Shown here: positions 8,545 to 35,738 of the stretch, piece by piece
Layout: each line of letters begins with the position of its first letter
How positions within the stretch are numbered: the stretch's first letter is position 1
Source of the DNA: an uncultured Pseudomonadota bacterium
GTDB taxonomy: Bacteria; Pseudomonadota; Alphaproteobacteria; RF32; CAG-239
DNA: 64,000 nucleotides
Assembly (NCBI GenBank): GCA_902763905.1
Contig: CACWUA010000001.1
Location: 11-64,010, forward strand
Direction: 5' to 3'
Made by a program: the position numbers and the translations under genes
Notes under the pieces: model-generated
Seen by the model: only the letters and a program-made list of their open reading frames with translations
Database searches by the model: none
What the model was told of the DNA's origin: nothing

Positions 8545-10326
8545 ATGCGTATTAAGATGAATATGTCTCGATGTATAGGAGGCATGGCTGTAATGGCTTT
8601 ATGGTTTGTTACGGCCGTATATCCGGCGAGGGCAGACGTCTGCTTTTTGCCGACGGGAATATGTGAGCAAGGAGTTACCACCAAAAACGACACCGCCCAG
8701 TGCACTTTGAATCTCAGTATTTACAAGAGTGCGCCGGTAGAGGGCAAAAAGTGTACAAAAGTCGAGGTTCCCGGGTGTCCGACGGTGTATGAATGTTTTG
8801 ATGACAGCTGCGATGCCCGCGGTTATAAGATCAAAGGCACCACCAGTCAGACTACCTACCCGAACAGTTATAATCCGAATACTTGGACCTGTAACAGTTG
8901 TTTGCAGGGTAAGACGTATTTTTGGAATTGTACTCCGAAACCTTGCTCTAGAGGTACCACCAAAGCCAAAGCATCTTGTGCGGCCGGTTATGAGTGGCAA
9001 GCTCAGAATGATTACGGAATGTCCGGTAATGATAAATGCGGAACTTGCGTTATGAGCAGCTGTCCGTCCGGAACAACTTCGGCTCCGGCCAGCGGATGTC
9101 AAATTTGCGAAGTTAGCAGCAGACTGGTAAATGGCACTAAGTGTTACAAATGCCACAGCATGTCAACTGATTATAAAACTCAAACGCAGATTGACTCTAC
9201 ATACAGAAGAAACTTAGCCGGTTCTTGCTATCACTTTAATTCCAAACAAGCAGCTGACAACACAGTATGTTACAATGTTACGGAAAGTGAATGCGGCACT
9301 GATCAATACAAAGGTAAAGCAACCGTCAACGGCCAGATGGCTTGTCAGTGCGTTAATTATGCATACACTTTTGTAACAACAGACGGCAAAGAAGAAGTCA
9401 ATCTTAATTTTCCGGCAACCGGCGGTACTAGCAGTGTAGGGATAAGTTCGGCAAGGAGTGCTACATATTATGGCGGTGGTTTCAGTGAAGGAATTTATTT
9501 TTCGTCTCGAAATACTGAAGGCAGCGGTTTAAGTGTTAGCACATCTGGTAACGTAACAACAATATCCGCTCCTAAAAATGAGGATCAAACCACGGATAAA
9601 ACTTATACCGTACAACTTATCCAACAGTATTCAAACAAAGTAATTACCATCCATGTAAAAGTGGCTCATGATGCTTGTCCGAATGATTATAAATTTGATG
9701 ATAAATGTGAGCAAACCGGTTGGAGAACAAAAACCGATAACAGAACATCTACCACTGGTAAAGCGTGCTATAAGTGCTATAATGATAATTGCTCGACAGG
9801 GTTTACCAAGGGAACAACTCCGACTAACGGCAACTATGATACCGAGACAACACCGTATGGCTCTAACTGCTATAAAGCAAAGCCGGATGATTGCCCGAGC
9901 GGATATACCAAGGGTTCAACTCCGCTGCCGACAAATCACTATAACACCAGCACCACGCCATTTGGTAGCAACTGCTATCAGCAGATATCGGATGATTGCA
10001 CATACGGTTCTCTGAATCCGGGGTACTGCCCGTATGGCCGGAGTTATGTAGGTAAATCAACTTTAGGCAATGATTGCTATGAATGCGATTCGCCGTCTTA
10101 TTGGTGGGATGACGATGACGACGATGACGACGACGATGACGATGATGATGGTTGCCCAGCCGGTGAAACAATGACTACACACGCAGGTTGCTGTAAATGG
10201 GGTGAATTATATCATACTAGTGGATATTATAGCTGCTGCGAGTGCGGTTCAGATTCCGATTGCCCTAGTACAGGCATCCATGGTACGTATATTGGATGTG
10301 TCGGTTGTGAATGTGAGGGCTATTAA
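8545..10326 (+). CDS. Secreted Cys-rich, Thr/Ser-rich repeat protein with a poly-Asp(14) tract (no recognisable family)
   Basis: An AGGAGA RBS lies 7 nt upstream. The N-terminus is signal-peptide-like (MAVMALWFVTAVYPARA|DV). The protein has more than 60 Cys and internal repeats (TTPYGSNCYKAKPDDCPSGYTKGSTP / TTPFGSNCYQQISDDCTYG). A D14 run is followed by a Cys-dense C-terminus. Confidence 0.6.
   Translation: MRIKMNMSRCIGGMAVMALWFVTAVYPARADVCFLPTGICEQGVTTKNDTAQCTLNLSIYKSAPVEGKKCTKVEVPGCPTVYECFDDSCDARGYKIKGTTSQTTYPNSYNPNTWTCNSCLQGKTYFWNCTPKPCSRGTTKAKASCAAGYEWQAQNDYGMSGNDKCGTCVMSSCPSGTTSAPASGCQICEVSSRLVNGTKCYKCHSMSTDYKTQTQIDSTYRRNLAGSCYHFNSKQAADNTVCYNVTESECGTDQYKGKATVNGQMACQCVNYAYTFVTTDGKEEVNLNFPATGGTSSVGISSARSATYYGGGFSEGIYFSSRNTEGSGLSVSTSGNVTTISAPKNEDQTTDKTYTVQLIQQYSNKVITIHVKVAHDACPNDYKFDDKCEQTGWRTKTDNRTSTTGKACYKCYNDNCSTGFTKGTTPTNGNYDTETTPYGSNCYKAKPDDCPSGYTKGSTPLPTNHYNTSTTPFGSNCYQQISDDCTYGSLNPGYCPYGRSYVGKSTLGNDCYECDSPSYWWDDDDDDDDDDDDDDGCPAGETMTTHAGCCKWGELYHTSGYYSCCECGSDSDCPSTGIHGTYIGCVGCECEGY
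10108..10149 (+). repeat. (GAY)14 trinucleotide microsatellite encoding poly-Asp
   Basis: Fourteen consecutive GAT/GAC codons lie inside the Cys-rich protein gene. Confidence 0.85.
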
Positions 10327-10380: not shown

Positions 10381-10411
10381 AAAGGGAGGTGGTTTTATCC
10401 TCCCTTTTTTG
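10381..10411 (+). terminator. Rho-independent terminator (GGGAGG-loop-CCTCCC followed by T7)
   Basis: A 6-bp GC stem with a 9-nt loop followed by TTTTTTT, directly downstream of the Cys-rich protein gene. Confidence 0.7.
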
Positions 10412-10459: not shown

Positions 10460-11032
10460 ATGGCTGATGATGATAAATATAAAAGATGTCCGGAATATTG
10501 TCCGTTTTTGAAGGCTAACGGCACGTTTTGTGAATTGTTTCGCCGACCGCTGCAAACTGTTCAAGGAATATCACAAAAATGCGAAGAATGTAAAAATCCG
10601 GAACAGCGTAAAAGTTCTTATAAAGCACTCGGATTGTCTGTAGATGCTCGTGAACAGATATGGCAAAAAGCAATCTTGAAATATAACGAGATAGAACTGG
10701 GTAAAAAACGTGAAGAAGAAGGTGTGCGCAAAAAATTTGCGGCTCTTTTGGAAGATAAATACGGAGCACGTCCTCCGCTTGAAGGTAATGCGTTCTTAAA
10801 GAATTTGATAATCAATCTTTATATGGTGCTTGATGCCACCGAGCGCAGTATGATGGCGGCCATCTTAAACGGGCGCAACGGCGATAGATTGATTGAAGCC
10901 ATTGAACGTGCGCCCAAAGATGAAACTTTACTGCGTAATTTTCGCCGTGAACTTGATGGGCAATTTCAAGAGCATCAGCTGGAAATTAAACGAGAACAGC
11001 AGCAAAGAGACAATATAAATCAGCGTATTTAA
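10460..11032 (+). CDS. Hypothetical protein with an N-terminal Cys cluster (zinc-ribbon-like) and a charged coiled C-terminal half
   Basis: The ORF is 190 aa and a GAGGT Shine-Dalgarno lies 5 nt upstream. The N-terminus reads CPEYC..C..C-x2-C. No family was recognised. Confidence 0.45.
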   Translation: MADDDKYKRCPEYCPFLKANGTFCELFRRPLQTVQGISQKCEECKNPEQRKSSYKALGLSVDAREQIWQKAILKYNEIELGKKREEEGVRKKFAALLEDKYGARPPLEGNAFLKNLIINLYMVLDATERSMMAAILNGRNGDRLIEAIERAPKDETLLRNFRRELDGQFQEHQLEIKREQQQRDNINQRI

Positions 11033-11094
11033 AATATTTGTTGTATTTTTGTCAAATTGGTTTATAATCTATATAAATCAAAGGAGCAATGATA

Positions 11095-13023
11095 ATGACA
11101 GTTGAGACATTACTTACCAGAACCAAAGACAATTGTGTTATCGCATTTACCGTTTACTTTGGCAATGCGGCTGAAAAAACGCGCTTAAAACACGAGTGCG
11201 AAAACTTGTGCCGAAACCTGAATTATAATGAGTTTAACAGCAATATGCTGCGCTCGCACGGGATATCCTTTGATGCCGACAATACCAATTTTTTACACAA
11301 AGAAATTTCCGGATATCATTATCGCAAAGACCGTGCAAACTTTCGTAATGATATGCGTACCGATCCGCCGGCACAAACAAACACGTTGTCCCTATCCTAC
11401 CGGCTTACCGATGATGAATTTCCGGAGATGTTAAAGAATCTCGGTTTTAAAATCACACCGGTTGATAAGGCGTATAATGTGCGCTATAATCCTTCTCAAG
11501 GAAAGTTTGAGGCAGAAAATTTTGTAAGTACTACAGCAACTGTTTATTCAGATGACCGTAAAATAGAAATAGTCCGTAATCATTTTCGTTTTTCGAGTGC
11601 CGATTATCGCCGCTTAAACGAACTAAAAAATGATTTTTTTAATGCAAGGCAAAGCAATCCGCACTTAAGCATGTCATCTTATGTAAGCGCAATTCCGGAT
11701 TTACGCGACAGAGCCTTATTTGATTTTTATGCCCGCGAAAAAAGTAAAGTGGACAATCGCCGGACGACAATAGCTCACGAAATCAAGCATATTAAAAACG
11801 CTGTGTTACGAGACGGTTTAAACCTTAAGTCAAATAACAAACGCTTAAGCGTTGAAAATTATTACCGTATTGCCGTAGAAAACGAGCGTAGTGCGTATTT
11901 AGAAGAACTTGTGCAGAATATTAATGAGTATTTGCAAAAAGGTAATTATAACGATTTTTCGATGTTTTATGTTAATAATGCGGATTTTGTTGCTGAGCTG
12001 AAGCGCTTGCGTACACCGGCCGAACGTTTGGCATACGTGCGAAATTGGCCGCAATTGCTGGCAGTAAAAATGCGTGATTTTAACAGTAATTATTTGGATA
12101 AATACTTTAATCAGTTTAAGCAAATAACCGAATCGAGTATTGAAAATGCACCGCTCAATGCGCAGCCTGACAATGACGATGCAGAGTTCAAAAAATTGCG
12201 CTCGCTATTTTATAATTATCAGATTTATAATCCGGCGTCACATAGTATGGAATCCGTGAATTTGGCGGATTATCTTACTGCTGATTTGGAGATAAGTATC
12301 AATGATAGAGTGCGTCGTGAAATTATTGAACCGCAGCAAAATTGTTTGAATAGGCAGTTAAGCGATTTTGCCAGCGATAAAGCTGCCGGAAACATAAATC
12401 CGGAATTGATTGAGCCGGCAAAAGCACTAATGCGCGGAGGATTGCAAAGCAGCGAGTTTATAAACGAAGTGGATAATTTTCGTGTCTCTTCTTTGTATGA
12501 AGATGATGGTAATTCATTTCCGCAGCCGACAGCACCGTCGATTCCCAGCGATCATGCTCAATGGAGCAACAATTTGCAGCAATATTGGAGTAATACTGTC
12601 GGATATACCGAACTCGCCAAGAATAATGAAGAATATAAGTTTAAGATTAATGGTGCAACAGTACGGTACTCTTCGGATAAAGATGTTCAGGTTAGTCAAA
12701 ATGCAAATTACCAGTTGTATGTCAAGTTATTGAATGAACCGAGCAAACAGAATGCTCCGATTGAATTTTTGGAGACGCTGCGCAAAGAACAAAAACTGCT
12801 TCTTTATATTGCCTGTATCAATAACGGACGCAAACCTATCGGAGCAGTTCCGACAGATTTTTCGGATATTGAAAATTTGCAAGGCATAGCTCCGGCAGAA
12901 ATAAATAAATTCCGCCATCGGATGCAGCAACAATCAGGTGCGGCTCAAAATGCCAATGCGCAAAGCACTCAAACTCGGGCTCAAAAGATGTGTATGCAAA
13001 AGACTATGCAAAATACGCGCTAA
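11095..13023 (+). CDS. Hypothetical 642-aa protein with an HExxH..E (gluzincin-like) motif and no signal peptide
   Basis: TIAHEIKHIKN contains an HExxH motif, and ENERSAYLEE ~35 aa downstream is a candidate third zinc ligand. The C-terminus is Gln/Asn/basic-rich. The ATG at 11095 was chosen because it lies 9 nt after an AGGAG Shine-Dalgarno, whereas the ATG at 11089 is too close to it. Confidence 0.5.
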   Translation: MTVETLLTRTKDNCVIAFTVYFGNAAEKTRLKHECENLCRNLNYNEFNSNMLRSHGISFDADNTNFLHKEISGYHYRKDRANFRNDMRTDPPAQTNTLSLSYRLTDDEFPEMLKNLGFKITPVDKAYNVRYNPSQGKFEAENFVSTTATVYSDDRKIEIVRNHFRFSSADYRRLNELKNDFFNARQSNPHLSMSSYVSAIPDLRDRALFDFYAREKSKVDNRRTTIAHEIKHIKNAVLRDGLNLKSNNKRLSVENYYRIAVENERSAYLEELVQNINEYLQKGNYNDFSMFYVNNADFVAELKRLRTPAERLAYVRNWPQLLAVKMRDFNSNYLDKYFNQFKQITESSIENAPLNAQPDNDDAEFKKLRSLFYNYQIYNPASHSMESVNLADYLTADLEISINDRVRREIIEPQQNCLNRQLSDFASDKAAGNINPELIEPAKALMRGGLQSSEFINEVDNFRVSSLYEDDGNSFPQPTAPSIPSDHAQWSNNLQQYWSNTVGYTELAKNNEEYKFKINGATVRYSSDKDVQVSQNANYQLYVKLLNEPSKQNAPIEFLETLRKEQKLLLYIACINNGRKPIGAVPTDFSDIENLQGIAPAEINKFRHRMQQQSGAAQNANAQSTQTRAQKMCMQKTMQNTR

Positions 13024-14665: not shown

Positions 14666-16513
14666 ATGATCGAGCAAACAGATGTAATTGTGGTCGGCGG
14701 TGGTCATGCCGGCTGTGAAGCAGCTGCTGCAGCTGCTCGCATGGGTGTAAATACCCTGCTTATAACACATAAAATTGATAAGATAGGTGAAATGTCATGC
14801 AATCCGGCAATAGGCGGCTTGGGCAAAGGGCACTTGGTGCGTGAAATTGATGCTTTAGACGGATTGATGGCTCGCGTGATTGACAAGGCCGGTATCCAGT
14901 TTCGTATGCTGAACTTATCTAAGGGACCTGCCGTTCGCGGACCGCGTGCGCAAGCCGATCGCTCGCTATATAAAAAATTTATGCTCGATGAATTACGTAA
15001 AATCAATAAGTTAGATATAATGGAAGCGTCTGTCGAGGGGCTAATTATAGAAAAAAATCATATCTCCGGCATAGTGTTGTCTGATGGCAGAAAAATTTCT
15101 GCTGCAGCCGTTGTTCTTACTACAGGTACTTTTTTAAATGGAATAATGTTTACCGGCCATCAAACGTCTGAAGGCGGACGTATCGGTGACGAGTCATGTA
15201 AGGGAATAACACCGTATTTAAAACAGGCCGGACTGACATTGGGGCGGCTGAAAACAGGCACTCCGGCTCGTCTTAACGGTAAAACGATTAATTGGGAAAT
15301 TTTGGCGAAACAAGCAGGCGACGAATTGCCTCAAGCCTTTTCATTTTTAACTGATAAAATCACGAATCCGCAGATTGAGTGTGGAATAACCTGCACAAAT
15401 GAATCAACACATAAAATTATTCGAGAAAACTTTTCAAAATGCGCGCTTTTTTCGGGTTTGATTACCGGTCGTGGCCCGCGCTATTGTCCGAGTATCGAAG
15501 ATAAGTTGGTGCGTTTTGCCGATAGAACGTCGCATCAGATATTTTTGGAACCGGAGGGTTATGACACTGATGTTGTATATCCTAATGGTATTTCGACTTC
15601 ATTGCCGGCTGATGTGCAAGATGCCTTTATTCATACAATGATGGGCTTGGAAAATGTGGAAATTCTGCGTTACGCCTACGCTATTGAATATGATTATGTT
15701 GATCCGCGGGAATTAGACCATTGTTTGCAAACCAAAAAGGTAAAAGGATTATATCTGGCCGGACAAATTAATGGTACAACCGGATACGAAGAAGCAGCAG
15801 CGCAAGGACTGTTGGCTGGAATTAACGCGGCATTGAGCGTTGCAGGCGGCGAACAAGAATTTTATATAGATCGCAGTCAAGGATATATCGGAGTCATGGT
15901 GGACGATTTGATTACCAAAGGCGTTGATGAACCATATCGTATGTTTACATCGCGCTCTGAGTACCGCTTAGTGTTGCGGGCTGATAATGCTGATATGCGT
16001 TTGACTGAATTGGGGTATAAAATCGGCTGTGTGAGCGAAGATAGATACAGCGTATTTAAACAAAAAAAACAAGCAATTGAATCTTTTGATATGTATTGCA
16101 GGTCTGTTCCGGTACCTTTTTCTGAAATAGAGAAGCAAGGTTTGAGTGTTAAGCATAATGGCAAAAAGACACTGAAAGATGTTATGAGTTACCCTGATGT
16201 TTCACGTGAAACAATGTGCAAAATTGATTCTAAAATCAATGAGATTGATGATAAAATTTATGAACAAGTTGAAATTGATGCAAAGTATTCGGGGTACATA
16301 AAGCGTGAATATGAGGATATTGCTGTGTTTAAACGCGATGAAAATCTAAAAATACGTGAAGATATTGATTACACCAAGATAGGCGGACTCTCAACCGAAA
16401 TGATCCATCGCTTTTCAACAGTTCGCCCTAAAACTATCGGAGAGGCCTCGAGAATCACCGGCGTGACTCCGGCTGCCATAACAGCATTATTGGGATATAT
16501 TAAAAATGCTTAG
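14666..16513 (+). CDS. mnmG: tRNA uridine 5-carboxymethylaminomethyl modification enzyme MnmG (GidA)
   Basis: An FAD-binding N-terminus ([15 protein letters not shown]) and the full-length GidA architecture. A GAGGTG RBS precedes the ATG at 14666; the in-frame ATG at 14630 is unlikely. Confidence 0.9.
16198..16213 (+). promoter_or_regulatory. parS site (perfect TGTTTCACGTGAAACA)
   Basis: Exact 16-bp parS consensus palindrome inside the mnmG coding sequence. Confidence 0.7.
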
Positions 16514-17351
16514 CGTTCAAAATTATTCATATCATAATCACACCGATTTTTCTGACGGCATAGATTCTCTTATCGCCATGGTTAAGCGAGCTAAAGAAAT
16601 CGGCTTTGCCGAACTTGGTATCAGCGATCATTTAATTGTCCACAAAAATATGTATCAAAGTCCGAGTTGGGCTGATATGCAGCAAAAAAGTGCGGCATAT
16701 ATATATAATGCAGATTTTAAAAGTATATTGGATAAGTATCGTTATCACTGTGATGAAATACGCCGGCTTTCACGTAGCGAAAATTTCAAACTCTATGTTG
16801 GTTTTGAGGTCGATTATTTTACCTACGATGGCTGGGAAGAAGAATTTAAATGGTTTGTATCACAATTGGATTATGATTATTTGCAGAGCGGAAATCATTT
16901 TTTTTGCAACGAGAGCTGTGAAAAAATTATAAATATGGCAAACTTCTTACTGCTATGCCAAGATAATCAATTGCAATATAAATATATTGCGCAGCATTTT
17001 TCTATATTAAAAAAAGCGGTAGAAAGCAGAATGTTCAAATTTCTCGCTCATTTTGATTACTTAAAACGATTTTGCGGAAATGCTTATAGATTTGATCTCT
17101 TTAAGAATGATATTGCTGTAGTGTTAGATGGCTTACAGCAAACGCAAACAGCGCTGGAGGTTAGTACTAAAGGATTGCGAAAAGCCGGAGAACTCTACCC
17201 AGGTGCGGAAATTTTGCAAGAAACTGCCAAACGCGATATAGCAGTTATTATCAATGATGACGCGCATTGTGCAGCCGAACTGGGAATGAGCTTTGATAAA
17301 GCTGAGGCTGAGCTCGTAAAATATGGTATCACCAAGCGTTTAAAATTTTAG
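16506..17351 (+). CDS. PHP-domain phosphoesterase (histidinol-phosphatase/TrpH-like family)
   Basis: The N-terminus HNHTDFSDG...GISDH matches PHP metal-binding motifs. The start ATG overlaps the mnmG stop (ATGCTTAG). Confidence 0.6.
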
Positions 17352-19704: not shown

Positions 19705-19722
19705 TTTTATAAGGAGAAGAAA

Positions 19723-19968
19723 ATGCCTACAATCTTGGAAATGATGTTGGAAAATTGCAAAAAAGCCGGATATCACCCGACTGCAAATATTGAAAAAATC
19801 GCCAAAGCTAAAAATATGATGTTTGGCGAAAGCGAATGGCGTCGTTGCCCATGTGATGGGCAAAACGAAAAAAGATACTGCATTTCCGATTTATGCCGCA
19901 GCGATATTGAACGTGATGGTATTTGCCATTGTCGTTGTTATCAAAAATCAGGTACTGACAACGGATAA
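19723..19968 (+). CDS. Small Cys-rich protein with CPC...CHC motifs (ferredoxin-thioredoxin-reductase catalytic-subunit-like)
   Basis: The ORF is 81 aa and a GGAGAAG RBS lies 8 nt upstream. The sequence RRCPCDGQNEKRYCISDLCRSDIERDGICHCRCY resembles the CPC/CHC arrangement of FtrC-type [4Fe-4S]-disulfide proteins. Confidence 0.4.
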   Translation: MPTILEMMLENCKKAGYHPTANIEKIAKAKNMMFGESEWRRCPCDGQNEKRYCISDLCRSDIERDGICHCRCYQKSGTDNG

Positions 19969-19989
19969 ATTTTTATATGGAATTTATGA

Positions 19990-28333: not shown

Positions 28334-30547
28334 TTAGGCTTGTGGAGCGTCCATCTCGAAACCTTCGCTGTCATCCTCCTCGGCGTTGTATTCAATACCC
28401 AATTTGGCCAGCATATCGTCATTGATATCTTCACGCTGTGCCACCACCCAATCCGGCACGTTGGCACACGGCGGGAGTTTAGCCAGTTTAGTCATCTTCT
28501 TATCCAAATACCAACGCGGCGAATCGGCAATAATCGGCCGGTCAATATGACTTTGCATCAGTACCACTTGCTTTAACATCGGCAAACTCAAAAGTTGAGT
28601 CGAGCTGATTACCGGAATACCTTGCAGCTGGTAGTTAACGTTTTTCGCCAGCGGGTTAAAGTCTTTACCAAGTGAACCTTCCGTTCGCGAGAACGAAGAA
28701 ATACGAACAGTCTTGTTTCCTATCATCTTAGAGAAACGCTGTGCCGTAACCTCGTTGTTCTGCGAAAGAATAACTTTGCAGGCGGTAGTAGAAATCACCG
28801 TTTCCAAGTCATCTTTTCCGTATTTACCGGAAATTTGCCCCAAGTCTTGTCCGATTAGGAGGTACGACACTTTTTGACCACGACCTACGGCCGGTCCGTC
28901 AATAATGGCCTTCATTTTCGGCATTTGCGGAAACTCGTCGAGCACAAACAGGGCAGGGAACGGTCCCATTTTGCCGTCGGTACGGTTGACGTGATTCGGC
29001 GGATTGGAAATCAGATAAGAGCTCATCAATTCAATAAAGGTCGAACTGATAACGCCCAAAGCGCGCGCATCAACTTGGTTAACCGACAAATACACAGAAA
29101 TAGGCTTCCATTCACCGGTAATCGGGTCTTTCATACCGCGCAAATCCTTAAATTGCAAATCGGAGAAACTGGTACGCGCCTTAACCGCTTGGTTCTTAAA
29201 TACGTTAATACCGGCAAATGCCGTAGAAAGAATGGAACCGCGCTCCTTATCCGGCGTGTTACTCAAAGTACTCAATTCCGTAATACAGCGCTGAGCATAA
29301 CCGTAGTTGCGAGCCTCTTTGATAGCTTCTTCCAACATATCGTGCGTCGGGTCAGCCATTGCCGCCATTTGATCGCCTTCATCCAAACGACGTTGAATTT
29401 CTTGTGCCGCATTAATTTGCGCCTCAGTAATCCATTCCATAATCATGGCAATGCAGGCTTCACGCCCCATCCACCTTGACGGTAGCAGATTCCACGTACC
29501 GATTGGCAGATAGTTTTCCATGGTTAAAGTGCCGTTTTTTAAGTTTTGAATGGCACGCGGAGCTCCCGGATCACGCATATCCTGATAATATCCTTCAAGC
29601 ACTTCTTTGTCTTTTTCATCAAGTTTGCCCTCATAGATGCGACCGATAAAATAGTCGTTGGCGCGGGCGCGATCACACTTTGAAACCACAAATTGAATAA
29701 ATCCGGTTAAGGCTGCACGGCCGGTTTGTGACCAGTGCGGGTCGGCACCGCCTTTCGGATCTTCTACCAAAATATTGCACATGGAATCCACATACATATC
29801 GCGATCCGGCCCTTGTTCCGGAATACAATTCGGCGACAACGGATTCCAGCTTGGATAATAAATACCTTCACTCGGGTTATCTTCCGCACCCCAGTTAATG
29901 ATAAATACCGGCCCCACCTTGGCACGTGCACCGGAAGTTTTGTAACAAAGCTCCGGTTTCGGGTCATTAATCACCAAACTCAAGCCCTCCGAGTGGAAAA
30001 TCGTCGGCATCACCACACCCACGGTTTTACCGGTACCAGGAGGCGCACAGCACAGGGTTGCCAATGTTTCTTTCAAAAGCAAAAACTTGCCGTCAAATTT
30101 TCCCACCACTTGGCAGAAACCGTCAAATCCCAATAATGGCATCTTTTTTATATCGCGCAAATCGGCAATTTTGGCTTGACCTTGATAGTTGACTTGGAAT
30201 TTGTACGGACTGAAAATGGCACTGATGATTATACCGAGTGGAATTGTTATAAAAGGCAGAAGAGGAATCCATAAACTTAAAGAAAATGGTCCGCGGTGAT
30301 TCCATAATTGTTTCCACCATCTTCCATACATTGTAAACAAATGATTAGGATCATGCATAATAATTGTTAAAAACTTCTGTACCACGGTTGTTGACGACTT
30401 AGATAACCCATGACCTACAACATAAGAAAGAGGTAGACTGAAGATAAATAAGATTATGGTGAGACCTATGCAAATAAACAATGTTATCAACATCCATCGA
30501 ACGGCTTTGTCATATTCTTTCCATTCTTCACCACGATCGTTGGCCAT
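28334..30547 (-). CDS. virD4: Type IV secretion coupling protein VirD4/TraG family ATPase
   Basis: Two N-terminal TM helices, a Walker A (CCAPPGTGKTVGVVMPT), the TraG/VirD4 core and an acidic C-terminal tail (EEDDSEGFEMDAPQA). Confidence 0.85.
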   Translation of the reverse strand: MANDRGEEWKEYDKAVRWMLITLFICIGLTIILFIFSLPLSYVVGHGLSKSSTTVVQKFLTIIMHDPNHLFTMYGRWWKQLWNHRGPFSLSLWIPLLPFITIPLGIIISAIFSPYKFQVNYQGQAKIADLRDIKKMPLLGFDGFCQVVGKFDGKFLLLKETLATLCCAPPGTGKTVGVVMPTIFHSEGLSLVINDPKPELCYKTSGARAKVGPVFIINWGAEDNPSEGIYYPSWNPLSPNCIPEQGPDRDMYVDSMCNILVEDPKGGADPHWSQTGRAALTGFIQFVVSKCDRARANDYFIGRIYEGKLDEKDKEVLEGYYQDMRDPGAPRAIQNLKNGTLTMENYLPIGTWNLLPSRWMGREACIAMIMEWITEAQINAAQEIQRRLDEGDQMAAMADPTHDMLEEAIKEARNYGYAQRCITELSTLSNTPDKERGSILSTAFAGINVFKNQAVKARTSFSDLQFKDLRGMKDPITGEWKPISVYLSVNQVDARALGVISSTFIELMSSYLISNPPNHVNRTDGKMGPFPALFVLDEFPQMPKMKAIIDGPAVGRGQKVSYLLIGQDLGQISGKYGKDDLETVISTTACKVILSQNNEVTAQRFSKMIGNKTVRISSFSRTEGSLGKDFNPLAKNVNYQLQGIPVISSTQLLSLPMLKQVVLMQSHIDRPIIADSPRWYLDKKMTKLAKLPPCANVPDWVVAQREDINDDMLAKLGIEYNAEEDDSEGFEMDAPQA

Positions 30548-30563
30548 TTTGCTTTACTCCACT

Positions 30564-32081
30564 TTATTTTATGTTTTTCAAAACGTTGCGTATATTATCC
30601 AGTTGTTTTTTAGTTACTTTTTCATCAGCCTCGCTGAGAATCTTAGAAAACAGCTTAATTTCCTTCGGTGCACCGCGATTTATGCGTGTAACCTCAATTC
30701 CCATTTCGTTCCATATATCAAACATATCATCAGCATTAATAATATTTGCCATTTGAATAATCACACATGAAGTGATTTTTTGCTCAAATTCGTTTTCATC
30801 GAGTGCGGTCTCAATCAGCTTTTTCACATTATTAAGCTTACAAACCGGTGAAACACGATGACTGCTTTCAGAGAACCACAACGGCTCTTCTCCGTTAAAC
30901 ATCTCCTCATCGGCCAACCAATCACCGCTTTCTTTATCGACTAAACATAAGTAGATATCATTTTGTGAAACACCGACAAAGTCAATAAGTGTACCTTTAA
31001 CCGAAATATTGGTAATAACATCATAATTCTTTTGCAACAATGTTTCATAAACCGGACTGCGTGGCGTATCATTTGTTTTGTTATCCGAATTTCTGGAGCG
31101 CCGTTCACTGCTTCTCTCTTCGTCATCGGTATCACGCTGACGTGAACTGCGCCTAGATGTTTCATCAGATTTACGCGAAGATTTGCGCGAAACTTTATCT
31201 CTGTTGTCGCGTCGATTCGCACGCGGTGATTCAAAGTTTTCTTCATCTTCATCATTATCTTCGTCGTCATCATCATCAAAGTCGTATTTCGGCTTGGAGT
31301 GTTTACTCGGCTGGTTGATTTTCTCTTCATTATCATCCGAATGTTTTTGGGATTTTCTCTCGTTTGTCGGTTTTTTCTTTCCTATATCGGCTTTTTCAAA
31401 GGAGTCGATATCCAAATCGAAATCATCATCATCGTCATCGTCAAATTTGAATAATGCGTGGTCAATTGTGGCGGCCACATCAGTCTTTTTCTTAGCCGTA
31501 GCCGGAGCCGGCGACTGAGCTACCATCGGAGCCGCATAAGACGAACCGGCAACTGCTGCCGCCATCGGTGCGGAAGTAGCCGAATTGCCGTAATCGGAAA
31601 TAGGCACTCGCAAAGTATTAATTCCCGTCGGTCGAATCAACTTATATGATTTACGTTTAACCACTCCATAGCGGTTATTGCCTGTAGATACCGACGAAAG
31701 AGGCGACTTGTCGCTATATTTTTTATAGAGTGTATACGGAAGCTTTATTATATTCCATATAACTTCTTCCCAAGCCACCATGCATAGTGTCCACCAACCG
31801 GTAATCAGCATCGGGAAAAATACAATCATTAAAAGAATAAATGCCCACTCTTTAGGCGCGCGCGGAATCCAACCCGCTTTCCATGTTGTAGCGAATTGAT
31901 GCCAATGATCAGGCCAGAAAATATCAAAATGCCAATTACACAGCATAATTACGCGAATACCCTCTGTGAAGACAATCCCCCACAGGCATCCGACAATTAG
32001 AATTCTAAGAAATACCAATATGGATTTCAACTGCGCACTCCGTAAATTTGCCAATACACTCACTATATTAATAGCACTCAA
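30564..32081 (-). CDS. Hypothetical two-TM membrane protein with poly-Asp/Glu and Arg-Ser-rich disordered tracts (DotM-like position and topology)
   Basis: The ORF is 505 aa and its stop lies 16 nt upstream of the virD4 start. It has two N-terminal hydrophobic helices, low-complexity D7/D5EDNDEDEE and SRKSSRKSDETSRRSSRQRD tracts and a ~150-aa C-terminal globular region. Confidence 0.55.
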   Translation of the reverse strand: MSAINIVSVLANLRSAQLKSILVFLRILIVGCLWGIVFTEGIRVIMLCNWHFDIFWPDHWHQFATTWKAGWIPRAPKEWAFILLMIVFFPMLITGWWTLCMVAWEEVIWNIIKLPYTLYKKYSDKSPLSSVSTGNNRYGVVKRKSYKLIRPTGINTLRVPISDYGNSATSAPMAAAVAGSSYAAPMVAQSPAPATAKKKTDVAATIDHALFKFDDDDDDDFDLDIDSFEKADIGKKKPTNERKSQKHSDDNEEKINQPSKHSKPKYDFDDDDDEDNDEDEENFESPRANRRDNRDKVSRKSSRKSDETSRRSSRQRDTDDEERSSERRSRNSDNKTNDTPRSPVYETLLQKNYDVITNISVKGTLIDFVGVSQNDIYLCLVDKESGDWLADEEMFNGEEPLWFSESSHRVSPVCKLNNVKKLIETALDENEFEQKITSCVIIQMANIINADDMFDIWNEMGIEVTRINRGAPKEIKLFSKILSEADEKVTKKQLDNIRNVLKNIK

Positions 32082-32108
32082 ATATTAAAAAAGTGAATAT
32101 ATTTTTCG

Positions 32109-32585
32109 TTAATTGTTCGATTCTTGTATTTTCTCAATAATTTCTTTGCGAAAATCAGTAACATTTTCGGATTTGGTTTTTTTCTTTTCTTGATCAAGCC
32201 TCTCCTTAATGAACTGATCCAACGATTTTTTTTCTTCTATTTTTAAGTTTTTGATATTAACATCGGGAGCCACATAGCCGTCAAACCCGCTGTTAAAGAT
32301 TTTGTTGAGCGGCACCGTCAGTAATTTCATATACTTAAAGTGATATAATTTATACCAACCGTAAAAACAAAGCGGCACCACTGATAAAACCATTGCAATG
32401 ACAATTAAATCCTTGCCCTGCAAGACATTTCCTCTGTTCCAAAAGTTGGACAAACTGCGATAGAACACCGGCGGCGTGGTATGATAAACCAATAGTATAA
32501 TGAGCTGTACCAAGCCGGCCAGAATGGCCATCCACAAAACACAGGCAACTAACACGCAAATAAAATGAAAAAACTTTTTAATCAT
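32109..32585 (-). CDS. Hypothetical small membrane protein (2 TM) with a charged C-terminus
   Basis: The ORF is 158 aa with two hydrophobic helices and sits in the same operon, 27 nt upstream of the next gene. Confidence 0.45.
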   Translation of the reverse strand: MIKKFFHFICVLVACVLWMAILAGLVQLIILLVYHTTPPVFYRSLSNFWNRGNVLQGKDLIVIAMVLSVVPLCFYGWYKLYHFKYMKLLTVPLNKIFNSGFDGYVAPDVNIKNLKIEEKKSLDQFIKERLDQEKKKTKSENVTDFRKEIIEKIQESNN

Positions 32586-32652
32586 CAGCGGCCTTCTCTT
32601 GTACCCTGCGGTCTGATTTGCTGCATCTCATGCTTTTTATTTATGCGGTTTT

Positions 32653-34695
32653 TCATCCTATCGAGATTAATTTTGCGTTTTTTGTTATTCTCTTTGCTTG
32701 CGGCGTTTTGTTCTTTTTTCCTTCAATATCTCTATCCCATTGCTGTTCTTTTTTATGTCCGGAATTTTCCTCTCGTGCCGCTTCATCCGGTCCCATTTTG
32801 GTGGATTTCTTCGGTTTATTGTTACCTTGCACTTGCGCTCGCTCTCCTTCGCTGGGTGTGCGGTAATGATTGTAGAACTTATCAAACTCGACTTCCTGCG
32901 CTTTCATCTGCTGTTCCAGAACTTTTTTCTTGGCCGGATCTTGTTCGGTATGGTATGCACATTGCAAATCTCTCAGAGTCTTACCCTCACAACAGATATC
33001 TGCATAATATCCACCCAATTCTTTTGCCGCCGAATTGGCAATCTTAAGTTTTTCTTTAGGCGGGATTTCGGCATCCGGAGCAAGATGATGCTCAACTCGA
33101 TAATCATTTTCTTTTTGCTTAAATATGACTGAGGTTGTTTCCATCATATCAAACATTTTAATCAATGTTGCTTTCTGAACATAAGCTGCGGCCTCAGCAT
33201 TGCCGTCCAGCTCTTTATCCGGATTTTTTCGAACATATTCATTGGTCGCAAGATGCGCACACAATTTGACCAAATCATTCTTTTTGCCGTCTTTATGGAT
33301 AGGAAAAACAGTTTCCAATTTTTGGGGATCCTTTTCCAATTCTGTAATTTTTTGCATAAAATAACCCTTATCGGAGGCAAAAATCTCATTCATGGTTTCG
33401 GCAAAATTTTGATGTATTTTCGGATCAAATACCACAAACGGCACACCTTTTTGCGGAGCGCCGATAACAGGCTGCCATTTGTCCGGATTTTTGCCGATAT
33501 TGTTTTGAATGCAGCGCAGCATCGGTTGTAATCTTTGCGGATTTTTCATCAAGTCTCCGAATTTATCGACAAAGTCGGCGCGAGTAGCATCAGCCAGTCG
33601 GCTCATTTGCTGCGCAAAAGCGTTAGCTTCCGGCGAAAGCTCAACCGCAGCGGCATTTTGAGGGCTATTACCACTGTTGCCGGCTTTACCAGCAGCTTTG
33701 GCCGCAGCAGAAGTTCTAACCGGAGCTTGTCCTTCTCCGCATAAATAATCCAAACCGGTATCAAGTGTCTTAAATGCTTTTTGCATAACATAGTTAATTA
33801 AACCGAGAAACCAAACGTTATAAAGGTATTGAATTAAATCTTGTTCTTTTACCGGATCAAAATTAAAATCACCTTTTTTACCGCGTTCGGAATCGCGTTT
33901 AGAATCTTCGAGTTGAGCTGTATTTTCCGCTTTTTCATCGTCATTCGGCTTGTTTTCCGGCGGAGTTTCAGCTGAGATATTGAGTTTGTTGCCATCAGCC
34001 GAGAAATTTAATGTATCTGCCTCATTTTCTGGCAATCCTCCCATTCTTATCGGTTCCGATTCGGATTTTTGTTCTTCTGTGCTCTGATTCAATCCTGACT
34101 TTTTTAAGGATTCATTCAGCGCATTTTGCAAAATAAAAGATTTTTTTGCCAAATCCTTATATTTAAGGCTACGTGGTTTGGAGGCATCAACTGCATTAGC
34201 CGCTTTACTTAAAACTTCATCATAATCCAACTTTGCCAATGTTTCGGAAATATCTATCATCACATTGCTGTTTTTATCAAGCAGTTCCAGAGTGTTTTTG
34301 TCTTTAATGCGTTTTTGCTTAAATTCGGCGGCGTACGTATTAAGCGCAACAATTGTCATAATATTTTTGCCGCTTTGCGGATTCTTTTCCGTTAAAAATT
34401 GTACCATTTGCTCGTTGCTTATTTTTCCATCTTCATTAAGCTCTTGCATGGCTTTTAGGGCATTTTTGATACCTGTCAGATTCTGGAATCCGAGTTTTTT
34501 GGTTTCCTCTTTACTCCCGTTCGGAATAGGAGCAGGAAAGATCGCGGCTTTCAGAGCATCGGGCAAATGACCGATACCATATCTAAGCATACCGGCTTTT
34601 ATCAGCTCCATGTCCATATTTACTTCTTTATTCAATTCTGCGCAGAAGAGTTTAAAATCATCAGCTTCATTTGCATTTTTTATATCTTCAGCCAT
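32653..34695 (-). CDS. Hypothetical 680-aa soluble protein, acidic and Lys-rich, no recognised domain
   Basis: Long ORF on the same strand within the virD4 operon. It has no TM segment and no known motifs; codon usage is consistent with its neighbours. Confidence 0.55.
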   Translation of the reverse strand: MAEDIKNANEADDFKLFCAELNKEVNMDMELIKAGMLRYGIGHLPDALKAAIFPAPIPNGSKEETKKLGFQNLTGIKNALKAMQELNEDGKISNEQMVQFLTEKNPQSGKNIMTIVALNTYAAEFKQKRIKDKNTLELLDKNSNVMIDISETLAKLDYDEVLSKAANAVDASKPRSLKYKDLAKKSFILQNALNESLKKSGLNQSTEEQKSESEPIRMGGLPENEADTLNFSADGNKLNISAETPPENKPNDDEKAENTAQLEDSKRDSERGKKGDFNFDPVKEQDLIQYLYNVWFLGLINYVMQKAFKTLDTGLDYLCGEGQAPVRTSAAAKAAGKAGNSGNSPQNAAAVELSPEANAFAQQMSRLADATRADFVDKFGDLMKNPQRLQPMLRCIQNNIGKNPDKWQPVIGAPQKGVPFVVFDPKIHQNFAETMNEIFASDKGYFMQKITELEKDPQKLETVFPIHKDGKKNDLVKLCAHLATNEYVRKNPDKELDGNAEAAAYVQKATLIKMFDMMETTSVIFKQKENDYRVEHHLAPDAEIPPKEKLKIANSAAKELGGYYADICCEGKTLRDLQCAYHTEQDPAKKKVLEQQMKAQEVEFDKFYNHYRTPSEGERAQVQGNNKPKKSTKMGPDEAAREENSGHKKEQQWDRDIEGKKNKTPQAKRITKNAKLISIG

Positions 34696-34775
34696 TAAAG
34701 TATCTCCTTCAAAGCAACTTGATTTTTATTAATTGTATCATAAAAAAATGTTTTTGTCCACAACTATTTCTTTGC

Positions 34776-35738
34776 CTAAACTTTTACTTTTTTCATAAAT
34801 TTACCGATTTCAATATTGACGCGAATGCCATCTTTGGGAGTAACCTTTACCAATCCGAAAAAACGCGGTTTTATTTTGGCAAATTCAATCGGGGCAAAAA
34901 TTGCCGGATTGGTGGTTAGAGCCTTAAATGCGCCGTCAACATCTTTTTGTGCCACACGGAAATAATTGCTGACAAGGCGTTCGGCATCTATCGGAAAATT
35001 TTTTTTCTTTACGGCTTCAACCAAACGTTTTTGACGTTCTTTGCGTTCTAAATATTCTTCATAAAGCATTCGTTTTATGTGTTTTTCCTGATATTTAAGC
35101 AATTTAGCCTGATAAGTCAGTTCACAGCTTTCCATGTCAATCAAGATCTCGACATACGAGATTACGGCTAATTGCAAGTCCTGATCGCGTAAAGTCTCGG
35201 CAAAATTCAAAAATTCTTCATCGGTGGCAGAAACGTTAAATCCACCGACACTGTCCGGATAAATCTCACGCAATACATTCCAGCCGGCAACTAAGTCAGT
35301 CGCCAATAAATGTCCTATACTAGGTTTATAGTTCGGGTACAAAAAATCAATTTCAAACTCCCAGTTTAATGAAGGTATACTCTTGGCCGCACAAATCTTA
35401 TCAATAGAACCGCGATAATTTATATAAGCCTGCGCTAATTCGGATTCTTCACTTCTCAATTCTGGTTTCTTTTCTTCATCTTCAATAACTGTGCGAGCCT
35501 GCTCAAAAGTTTCAGCCAGTTCTTTTTCAAATGCATCTGAAGCGGCATCGTTTTCCGTCTGTCCTTGCTGACTCAAAGCCGGTTCTTCCGGTTTTTCTGC
35601 CGGTGCGGTTACAGCGGTTTCATCATCTTCCTCTAAATCATCAACTTTAGAGTTAATAAAGCTGTTTAAAAGCTTTTCAAAATCATCACCTTGGCTAAAT
35701 TCATTTTCATCACTCATAAAATCAGTACTCCTTTGCAA
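34776..35738 (-). CDS. Hypothetical 320-aa protein with a strongly acidic N-terminal third
   Basis: First gene of the minus-strand operon, divergent from rluD. No recognised domain. Confidence 0.5.
   Translation of the reverse strand: MQRSTDFMSDENEFSQGDDFEKLLNSFINSKVDDLEEDDETAVTAPAEKPEEPALSQQGQTENDAASDAFEKELAETFEQARTVIEDEEKKPELRSEESELAQAYINYRGSIDKICAAKSIPSLNWEFEIDFLYPNYKPSIGHLLATDLVAGWNVLREIYPDSVGGFNVSATDEEFLNFAETLRDQDLQLAVISYVEILIDMESCELTYQAKLLKYQEKHIKRMLYEEYLERKERQKRLVEAVKKKNFPIDAERLVSNYFRVAQKDVDGAFKALTTNPAIFAPIEFAKIKPRFFGLVKVTPKDGIRVNIEIGKFMKKVKV

Follow-up and report, generated by a model that had tools for sequence, protein, structure and literature searches.

A lineage-restricted core gene of uncultured Alphaproteobacteria encodes a probable gluzincin-type metallohydrolase of an undescribed family

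The described systems that come closest to the gene reported here are the gluzincin peptidases, the protein pairs ImmA/ImmR and IrrE/DdrO, and the substrates of type IV secretion systems (T4SSs). Gluzincins, which form clan MA(E), are recognised by an HExxH and an E-x-x-A motif on consecutive helices, and the signals of VirB/D4 substrates follow the consensus R-x7-R-x-R-x-R. In effectors carrying the XVIPCD, a tail that is rich in Gln and positively charged comes after a folded domain (PMC8740702). Here we analyse a 64,000-nt stretch of contig CACWUA010000001.1 (assembly GCA_902763905.1) from an uncultured alphaproteobacterium, referred to as the window, in which one gene encodes a protein with an HExxH motif (the HExxH protein) and lies directly downstream of a smaller gene, small190. 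Our results suggest that the HExxH protein is a zincin-like (gluzincin-type) metallohydrolase of an undescribed family, most probably a zinc peptidase.

The HExxH…E site and the predicted structure

The protein has a single HExxH motif, HEIKH at residues 230-234 (residues are counted from the ATG at 11089), against approximately 0.012 expected by chance at such a composition. A search of 5.8 billion proteins gave 82 clusters, all unnamed, 630-685 aa long, 29-61% identical and originating from uncultured Alphaproteobacteria. Across the 42 orthologues that were aligned, H230, E231, H234 and E266 are invariant, and conservation reaches at least 90% at N237, E264, R267, S268, A269 and Y270. When 1.84 billion representatives were searched with a profile, 186 clusters came up, and 51 remote relatives sharing 15-24% identity were examined. 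At this distance only E231 and E266 are invariant, with H230, H234 and A269, together with N87, W331, Y339 and P382, at least 90% conserved, and the superfamily can be described by the signature HE-x-[KH]-H-x2-N ... [DN]-E-x-[ST]-A. Such conservation is far beyond chance, and the motif is certainly functional.

A preliminary description of this DNA, made from its letters, had proposed the HExxH motif and a Glu-rich stretch downstream of it as the ligands of a gluzincin-type site. The motif is confirmed by its invariance in orthologues and its retention among the remote relatives, and the second element is narrowed to one residue: E266, 32 residues past H234, is the candidate third ligand because E264 of the same stretch is not conserved and varies in remote relatives. 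Two of the latter (P0246 and P0277) read YECHK in place of HExxH; both His are gone and A269 is also altered, with E231 and E266 kept, and these two proteins may be pseudo-enzymes.

The AlphaFold2 model built on the 42-sequence alignment was confident (predicted local distance difference test, pLDDT, 88.9; predicted template modelling score, pTM, 0.72), with residues 474-486 and 622-644 disordered (pLDDT < 50). As assigned by DSSP, H234 lies 10 residues before the end of helix 224-244 and E266 lies 11 residues into helix 255-284; such matching heights on an antiparallel pair of helices would give the geometry expected for a single metal site. Three helices, and not directly the beta-sheet, precede the motif helix in the model. 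Sequence and secondary structure thus lend good support to a gluzincin-type metal site, which is the best reading of these residues; in it, the metal would be held by H230 and H234 from the first helix and by E266 from the second, and E231 would activate water. The earlier reading of a metalloprotease-type motif has stood as well: HExxH and the Glu are kept superfamily-wide, fall on consecutive helices in the model, and the two His, where lost, are lost together.

At the same time, Foldseek searches of the full model against PDB and BFVD returned no significant match, whether to thermolysin, anthrax lethal factor (LF), botulinum neurotoxin (BoNT) or any other peptidase. Of the structural checks proposed in the preliminary description, structure prediction gave a confident model with the motifs on consecutive helices, and a fold match to thermolysin, LF or BoNT was not obtained. 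Six of the seven top PDB hits were chains of Mycobacterium tuberculosis PrpR (MtPrpR), with non-significant E values of 0.66-1.4. The DIII domain of MtPrpR is IrrE/M78-like (PMC6765138), and the similarity may serve as a weak lead only. Searches with the single sequence gave no family match in Pfam or NCBIfam, and Pfam recognised no significant family among the 42 orthologues and 51 remote relatives; isolated hits, each of one or two members, were to DUF2268 (0.0095), eCIS_core (0.01), Peptidase_Mx1 (0.0026) and SprT-like (0.048). Peptidase_M78 was not hit by any of the 93 family members scanned, three profiles run against PDB sequences found no significant relative, and PADLOC gave no hit. 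The HExxH protein represents an undescribed family for which no known sequence or fold relative was recovered.

In comparison with a 93%-identical orthologue, the ratio of nonsynonymous to synonymous substitution rates (dN/dS) was 0.23 over the whole gene; its motif region gave 0.15 and its C-terminal tail 0.69. The gene is shown to be under purifying selection. Neither a signal peptide nor a transmembrane (TM) segment was found in the HExxH protein, and a hydrophobic segment is absent (maximum KD19 = 0.76), which agrees with the earlier statement that it lacks a signal peptide. The features of the gene and its surroundings are collected in Table 1.

Table 1. Positions in the window of the HExxH gene, its parts and the features around it
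Feature	Position	Strand	Remarks
Intrinsic terminator, GGGAGG-loop-CCTCCC and T-run	10384..10411	+	read from sequence; 9-nt loop
small190, 190 aa	10460..11032	+	N-terminal Cys cluster, long helices, Q/N-rich end
Ribosome-binding site GGAG	11083..11086	+	8 nt before ATG 11095, only 2 nt before ATG 11089
HExxH protein gene	11095..13023	+	642 aa; alternative ATG 11089 gives 644 aa
N-terminal module (N-module, residues ~40-470)	11206..12498	+	beta-sheet, then helical region; carries the motifs; pLDDT mostly >90
HExxH, H230-E231-I-K-H234	11776..11790	+	inside helix 224-244; invariant or at least 90% conserved
E264-N-E266-R-S-A269-Y270	11878..11898	+	inside helix 255-284; E266 is the proposed third ligand
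Pro-rich disordered linker (474-486)	12508..12546	+	pLDDT < 50; length differs among orthologues (alignment gaps)
C-terminal alpha/beta domain (Cmod, ~487-621, 135 aa)	12547..12951	+	W492...Y527...A575 conserved
Disordered Q/N-rich positive tail, ends in Arg (622-644)	12952..13020	+	pLDDT < 50
Five-gene operon u320-u680-u158-u505-VirD4-like	28334..35738	-	context only

The locus and the partner gene small190

In the window the gene order is typA, dnaJ, class A penicillin-binding protein (PBP), polA, a secreted Cys-rich protein, small190, the HExxH gene, mnmE, mnmG, a PHP-domain gene, rsmG, parA, parB and dnaE. We compared it in 40 species-level genomes, which are metagenome-assembled genomes (MAGs) from rumen, deer, yak, horse and human gut, and in further contigs. 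Approximately 30 of the 40 genomes have typA-small190-HExxH-mnmE-mnmG, followed by rsmG-parAB, and the dnaJ-PBP-polA-Cys-rich block is an insertion of the window's own sublineage. Searches by tblastn of plasmids and phages found no relatives of the HExxH gene, which ruled out an origin from a mobile element; an island was ruled out as well, the locus being a syntenic core position. The 'lineage-specific island' of the preliminary description is correct in so far as the gene family is restricted to one lineage, and the island itself has to be dropped. The HExxH gene is a vertically inherited, single-copy, lineage-restricted core gene, present in every related rumen or gut alphaproteobacterium that was examined. 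Identity to the proteins of the window is 33-62% for the HExxH protein, 58-87% for small190, 64-85% for mnmE and 92-99% for typA, and both neighbours of the HExxH gene have a dN/dS of 0.05 in the orthologue comparison given above.

The small190 gene adjoins the HExxH gene in approximately 30 of the 40 genomes at a spacing of 56-62 nt; in seven of the 40 loci no small190 stands next to the HExxH gene. At one locus (L005) the order of the two is swapped and their adjacency kept. The strong terminator upstream of small190 closes the gene of the Cys-rich secreted protein and marks small190 and the HExxH gene as a separate transcription unit. Like its neighbour, small190 is confined to the same lineage (114 clusters), and its product is far more conserved than the HExxH protein. 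Its Cys cluster reads C10-x3-C14-x9-C24-x16-C41-x2-C44, in which C10, C14, C24 and C44 are invariant and C41 is at least 90% conserved. We found neither a signal peptide nor a TM segment in small190, no Pfam or NCBIfam family match, and no Foldseek hit with its model (pLDDT 74.6). By eye, residues ~111-150 (window 10790-10915), LDATERSMMAAILNGRNGDRLIEAI, resemble a LuxR or sigma-70 region-4 helix-turn-helix (HTH), a likeness with no supporting profile.

By analogy with ImmA/ImmR and IrrE/DdrO, we tentatively favour, with somewhat less than even confidence, a regulated protease that acts inside the producer cell and is paired with small190. The two genes form one operon, and small190 would be a substrate, a regulator or an adaptor of the protease. 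The pairing is proposed because the adjacency survives reversal of the order, a terminator precedes the pair, the gap is 56-62 nt, and neither protein has a signal peptide or TM segment. Several observations weigh against this reading. No significant match links the HExxH protein to any peptidase family or fold, and small190 shows no recognisable DNA-binding or substrate-like domain. The HExxH protein evolves 4-5 times faster than its neighbours, which is more typical of proteins that face another organism. Its conserved basic tail with a terminal Arg is not explained by a purely intracellular protease. In addition, small190 is missing beside the N-module paralogues described in the next section, so the module is generally independent of that partner.

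The choice of start site bears on the numbering used here. The longest frame, 11089..13023 (+), gives 644 aa in the open reading frame (ORF) listing, and the second ATG, 11095, is the start in the database gene calls and in all homologues, which align from M3; the database copy (P0001) is 100% identical and begins at this second Met. The start at 11095 that had been given earlier is supported by the spacing of the ribosome-binding site and by the homologue starts, and the length of 644 aa given with it belongs to 11089.

Three other features of the neighbourhood were observed. The PHP-domain protein (281 aa; window 16506-17351, +) is encoded between mnmG and rsmG, with an 8-nt overlap with the mnmG end, a position kept in all relatives examined. 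Between parB and dnaE the relatives have a called gene of 80-81 aa without a Pfam hit (L001 18742-18987), and the window has a gap of 286 nt (19705-19989). The Cys-rich protein encoded at window 8545-10326 (+) has 593 aa, a signal peptide, very many Cys, 13 consecutive Asp and no family match; its gene stands between polA and small190 in no sublineage other than that of the window, in which the copies share 37-87% identity.

Cmod, the C-terminal tail and the VirD4-like operon

Profile searches and domain parsing showed that the N-module and Cmod are separable, as each occurs without the other. The N-module alone makes up paralogues of 440-500 aa in related MAGs. These stand at core-like loci of the type grpE-X-ftsK and fba-X-der-bamB (L054 10001-12226; L055 10001-11344; L051 947-2425), with genes for an ankyrin-repeat protein and an Fe-hydrogenase near the L054 copy. 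Cmod was found in 59 further clusters without the N-module. The idea that it sits on more than 50 unrelated proteins was rejected, as all four Cmod-only proteins checked for context (P0255, P0284, P0288 and P0279) share one locus, and the number of distinct Cmod families is probably small. Neither the window nor the flanks of 55 loci contained a second gene with a Cmod or N-module.

The shared locus of the Cmod-only proteins is fast-evolving and has the order leuS - unknown A (~390 aa) - Cmod protein - unknown B (~400 aa) - rodA-pbp2-mreDCB (L048 8737-13038; L050 8753-14425; L052 8724-13664; L053 731-6575). The Cmod protein there is 600-1100 aa long and very variable, with acidic and Gln-rich linkers, and neither it nor unknown A or B has a Pfam hit. 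None of the 49 Cmod proteins scanned has a TM segment or signal peptide, and 52 compared with Pfam gave no meaningful domain. The best match of the Cmod profile among PDB sequences was a ribbon-helix-helix protein (2KEL), non-significant at E 0.09. In the HExxH protein the catalytic N-module would be tethered by the flexible linker to Cmod and to the basic, Arg-ended tail, and these last two may form a docking or targeting module.

The last 45 residues of the HExxH protein include 9 Gln, 4 Asn and 7 Lys/Arg, and one acidic residue. We compared the last 25 aa of the orthologues with those of 317 background ORFs, each 250 aa or longer and taken from the same loci. The net charge was +3.8 in the orthologues vs. 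+0.56 in the background, the fraction of Q/N/S/T 40% vs. 18%, a terminal Arg was present in 88% vs. 9%, and a Gly-Arg end in 50% vs. 1%. Tails of N-module-only and Cmod-only proteins were also positively charged (+3.0 and +2.6, respectively) and ended in Lys or Arg in 46-60% vs. 27% of the background. A disordered tail rich in Gln, Asn and basic residues, as first described, is borne out by these figures and by the low pLDDT. Composition and terminal residue are kept while the sequence drifts, and there is selection for charge and for the end Arg, which argues that something recognises the free C-terminus. In its composition the tail fits a VirB/D4-type signal.

The VirD4-like gene (28334-30547, -; 737 aa) is the last of the five genes of its operon and lies 15.3 kb from the HExxH gene, with 11 housekeeping genes between them, including mnmE, mnmG, PHP, rsmG, parA, parB, dnaE, a 312-aa ORF and H+-PPase. 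Only its residues 402-687 are matched by the Pfam models T4SS-DNA_transf, TraG-D_C and TrwB_AAD_bind, and every NCBIfam hit scored under its cut-off. In approximately 35 long rumen and human-gut contigs the operon adjoins rluD and rpoH, and between these contigs the VirD4-like protein keeps 71-96% identity, a degree of conservation equal to that of housekeeping genes. The other four products (u320, u680, u158 and u505) have no family match, and two of them have N-terminal TM segments. We saw no virB genes in the window nor, in the approximately 35 related contigs, at up to 10 kb from the VirD4-like gene. A type IV coupling protein (T4CP)-family ATPase is present and core in the lineage, and a canonical T4SS was not seen within the loci searched; the five genes could be an undescribed T4CP-based machine. 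The distance of 15 kb reported in the preliminary description is accurate, but the significance given to it is lost, as the operon is core and has no virB nearby: the distance carries no information on the HExxH gene.

A somewhat less likely reading is that the HExxH protein is a metalloprotease effector, made in the cytoplasm, bound through Cmod and the basic tail by the VirD4-like protein and exported into another cell, be it of a protist, an animal or a bacterium, with small190 as a possible chaperone, adaptor or immunity protein. The tail statistics and the faster evolution keep this reading in play, and the arguments from an 'island' and from 'virD4 proximity' are lost to it. Its other support comes from the positive, K/R-ended tails common to N-module-only and Cmod-only proteins, from the want of a signal peptide, TM segment or Pfam domain in all three kinds of protein, from a layout that parallels the XVIPCD effectors (PMC8740702), and from the lineage-wide conservation of a T4CP-family ATPase. 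However, virB genes are missing from the window and from the 10 kb around the VirD4-like gene in the related contigs, the VirD4-like protein matches T4CP models by its C-terminal half only and under every NCBIfam cut-off, and the HExxH gene is universal, single-copy and syntenic, with no secretion genes adjoining. Moreover, conservation is higher in small190 than in the putative effector, contrary to what immunity proteins usually show, no homology to XVIPCD or BID was detected, and basic disordered tails are found in nucleic-acid-binding proteins as well.

It is also conceivable, although improbable, that the HExxH…E site serves a non-proteolytic chemistry or holds a structural metal in a protein that is mainly a scaffold or adaptor; nucleic acid, or a partner in the cell cycle or the envelope, might then be bound by Cmod and the basic tail. 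Other chemistry is known among HExxH domains, as in the ChlB HExxH oxygenase domain (8S5F), and such a role would agree with the failure to recover a peptidase fold and with the two members that persist without both His. Both Cmod families stand beside cell-cycle or morphogenesis clusters (parAB and mreBCD-pbp2-rodA, respectively), and the weak hit to 2KEL points in the same direction. Against this, HExxH and E-x-x-A on consecutive helices are the gluzincin signature and E231 is invariant even where the His are lost, while the model has no match to 8S5F and the 2KEL hit is not significant.

Broader still, and quite improbable in our estimate, is the view that the HExxH protein, the N-module paralogues and the Cmod proteins, none of which has a signal peptide or a Pfam family and all of which carry Q/N-rich, basic, K/R-ended tails, are all substrates of an undescribed, lineage-wide export system around u320-u680-u158-u505-VirD4-like, in which the Arg-terminated tail would be the signal and Cmod the domain that docks on the coupling protein. 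A toxin-immunity or addiction pair, with the HExxH protein as toxic protease and small190 as its cytoplasmic antidote, would suit the tight two-gene operon and an adjacency that survives order reversal, but is highly improbable given that the pair is a syntenic, single-copy part of the core, that neither a relative on mobile elements nor a PADLOC hit was found, that the putative antidote is upstream and far more conserved than the toxin, and that seven of the 40 loci lack an adjacent small190.

Significance and comparison with known systems

Almost nothing is known of the biology of this clade, and we found no functional information on it in the literature. The HExxH gene is one of few lineage-specific genes at a fixed core position in a clade common in ruminants and non-industrialised human guts, and its family, which counts approximately 186 clusters at 50% identity, occurs in uncultured, host-associated Alphaproteobacteria only. 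Should the site be catalytic, these proteins would define a zincin-like peptidase family that is new, as is its domain architecture. Cmod and the tail link several 'dark' protein families, and perhaps also the conserved VirD4-like operon, and this link gives a testable entry to how these bacteria interact with their surroundings. If the export system exists, these Alphaproteobacteria of gut and rumen would inject effectors, either as symbionts or as antagonists.

The DNA-associated metalloproteases of the SprT, Wss1 and ArdC type resemble the HExxH protein in joining a cytoplasmic HExxH protease module to basic regions and to a second module that may bind nucleic acid. They differ in that the proposed third ligand of the HExxH protein is Glu and not His, the SprT-like Pfam model is touched by only 2 of the 51 remote relatives (E 0.048), and the domain order is the reverse of that in ArdC. 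As to HExxH oxygenases of the ChlB type, 8S5F was not among the Foldseek hits of the full model.

VirB/D4 substrates such as Agrobacterium VirE2 and VirF and the Bartonella Beps resemble the HExxH protein in having no Sec signal and a disordered C-terminus of net positive charge with Arg near the end. In contrast to them, no BID domain was detected in the HExxH protein and no virB operon was found in the loci searched. The likeness to the X-Tfe effectors of bacteria-killing T4SSs (Xanthomonadales and others; PMC8740702) goes further, with an enzymatic N-terminal part, a domain of ~120-135 residues and an unstructured, Gln-rich, positive tail, and with the conserved domain placed on proteins that differ in their N-terminal parts. 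Yet 7MU9, the XVIPCD structure, appeared neither among the Foldseek hits listed nor when PDB sequences were searched with the Cmod profile, and the other Cmod proteins continue for 80-320 residues past Cmod. No X-T4SS cluster was found in the window; the HExxH gene is core and syntenic, and its neighbour is not an immunity gene of the lipoprotein type.

The regulated protease that we favour would have its nearest counterparts in ImmA and IrrE (M78), which share with the HExxH protein a predicted cytoplasmic location, the HExxH…E motif and a gene beside that of a small, more conserved partner (ImmR and DdrO, respectively). The differences are that no hit to Peptidase_M78 was obtained, that small190 has a Cys cluster and long helices and no HTH hit by profile, and that ImmA and IrrE are without the extra C-terminal domain and basic tail. 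From the gluzincins at large (clan MA(E), including thermolysin M4, BoNT M27, anthrax LF M34, M48 and M78), the HExxH protein differs in the lack of a peptidase-family profile or significant Foldseek match and in an N-module that, with approximately 430 residues, is much larger than a minimal zincin. What it shares with them is the helical HExxH with an invariant catalytic Glu, and a further Glu on the next helix that lies 32 residues past the second His (within ~20-70) and is followed by a small residue at +3 (E-x-x-A).

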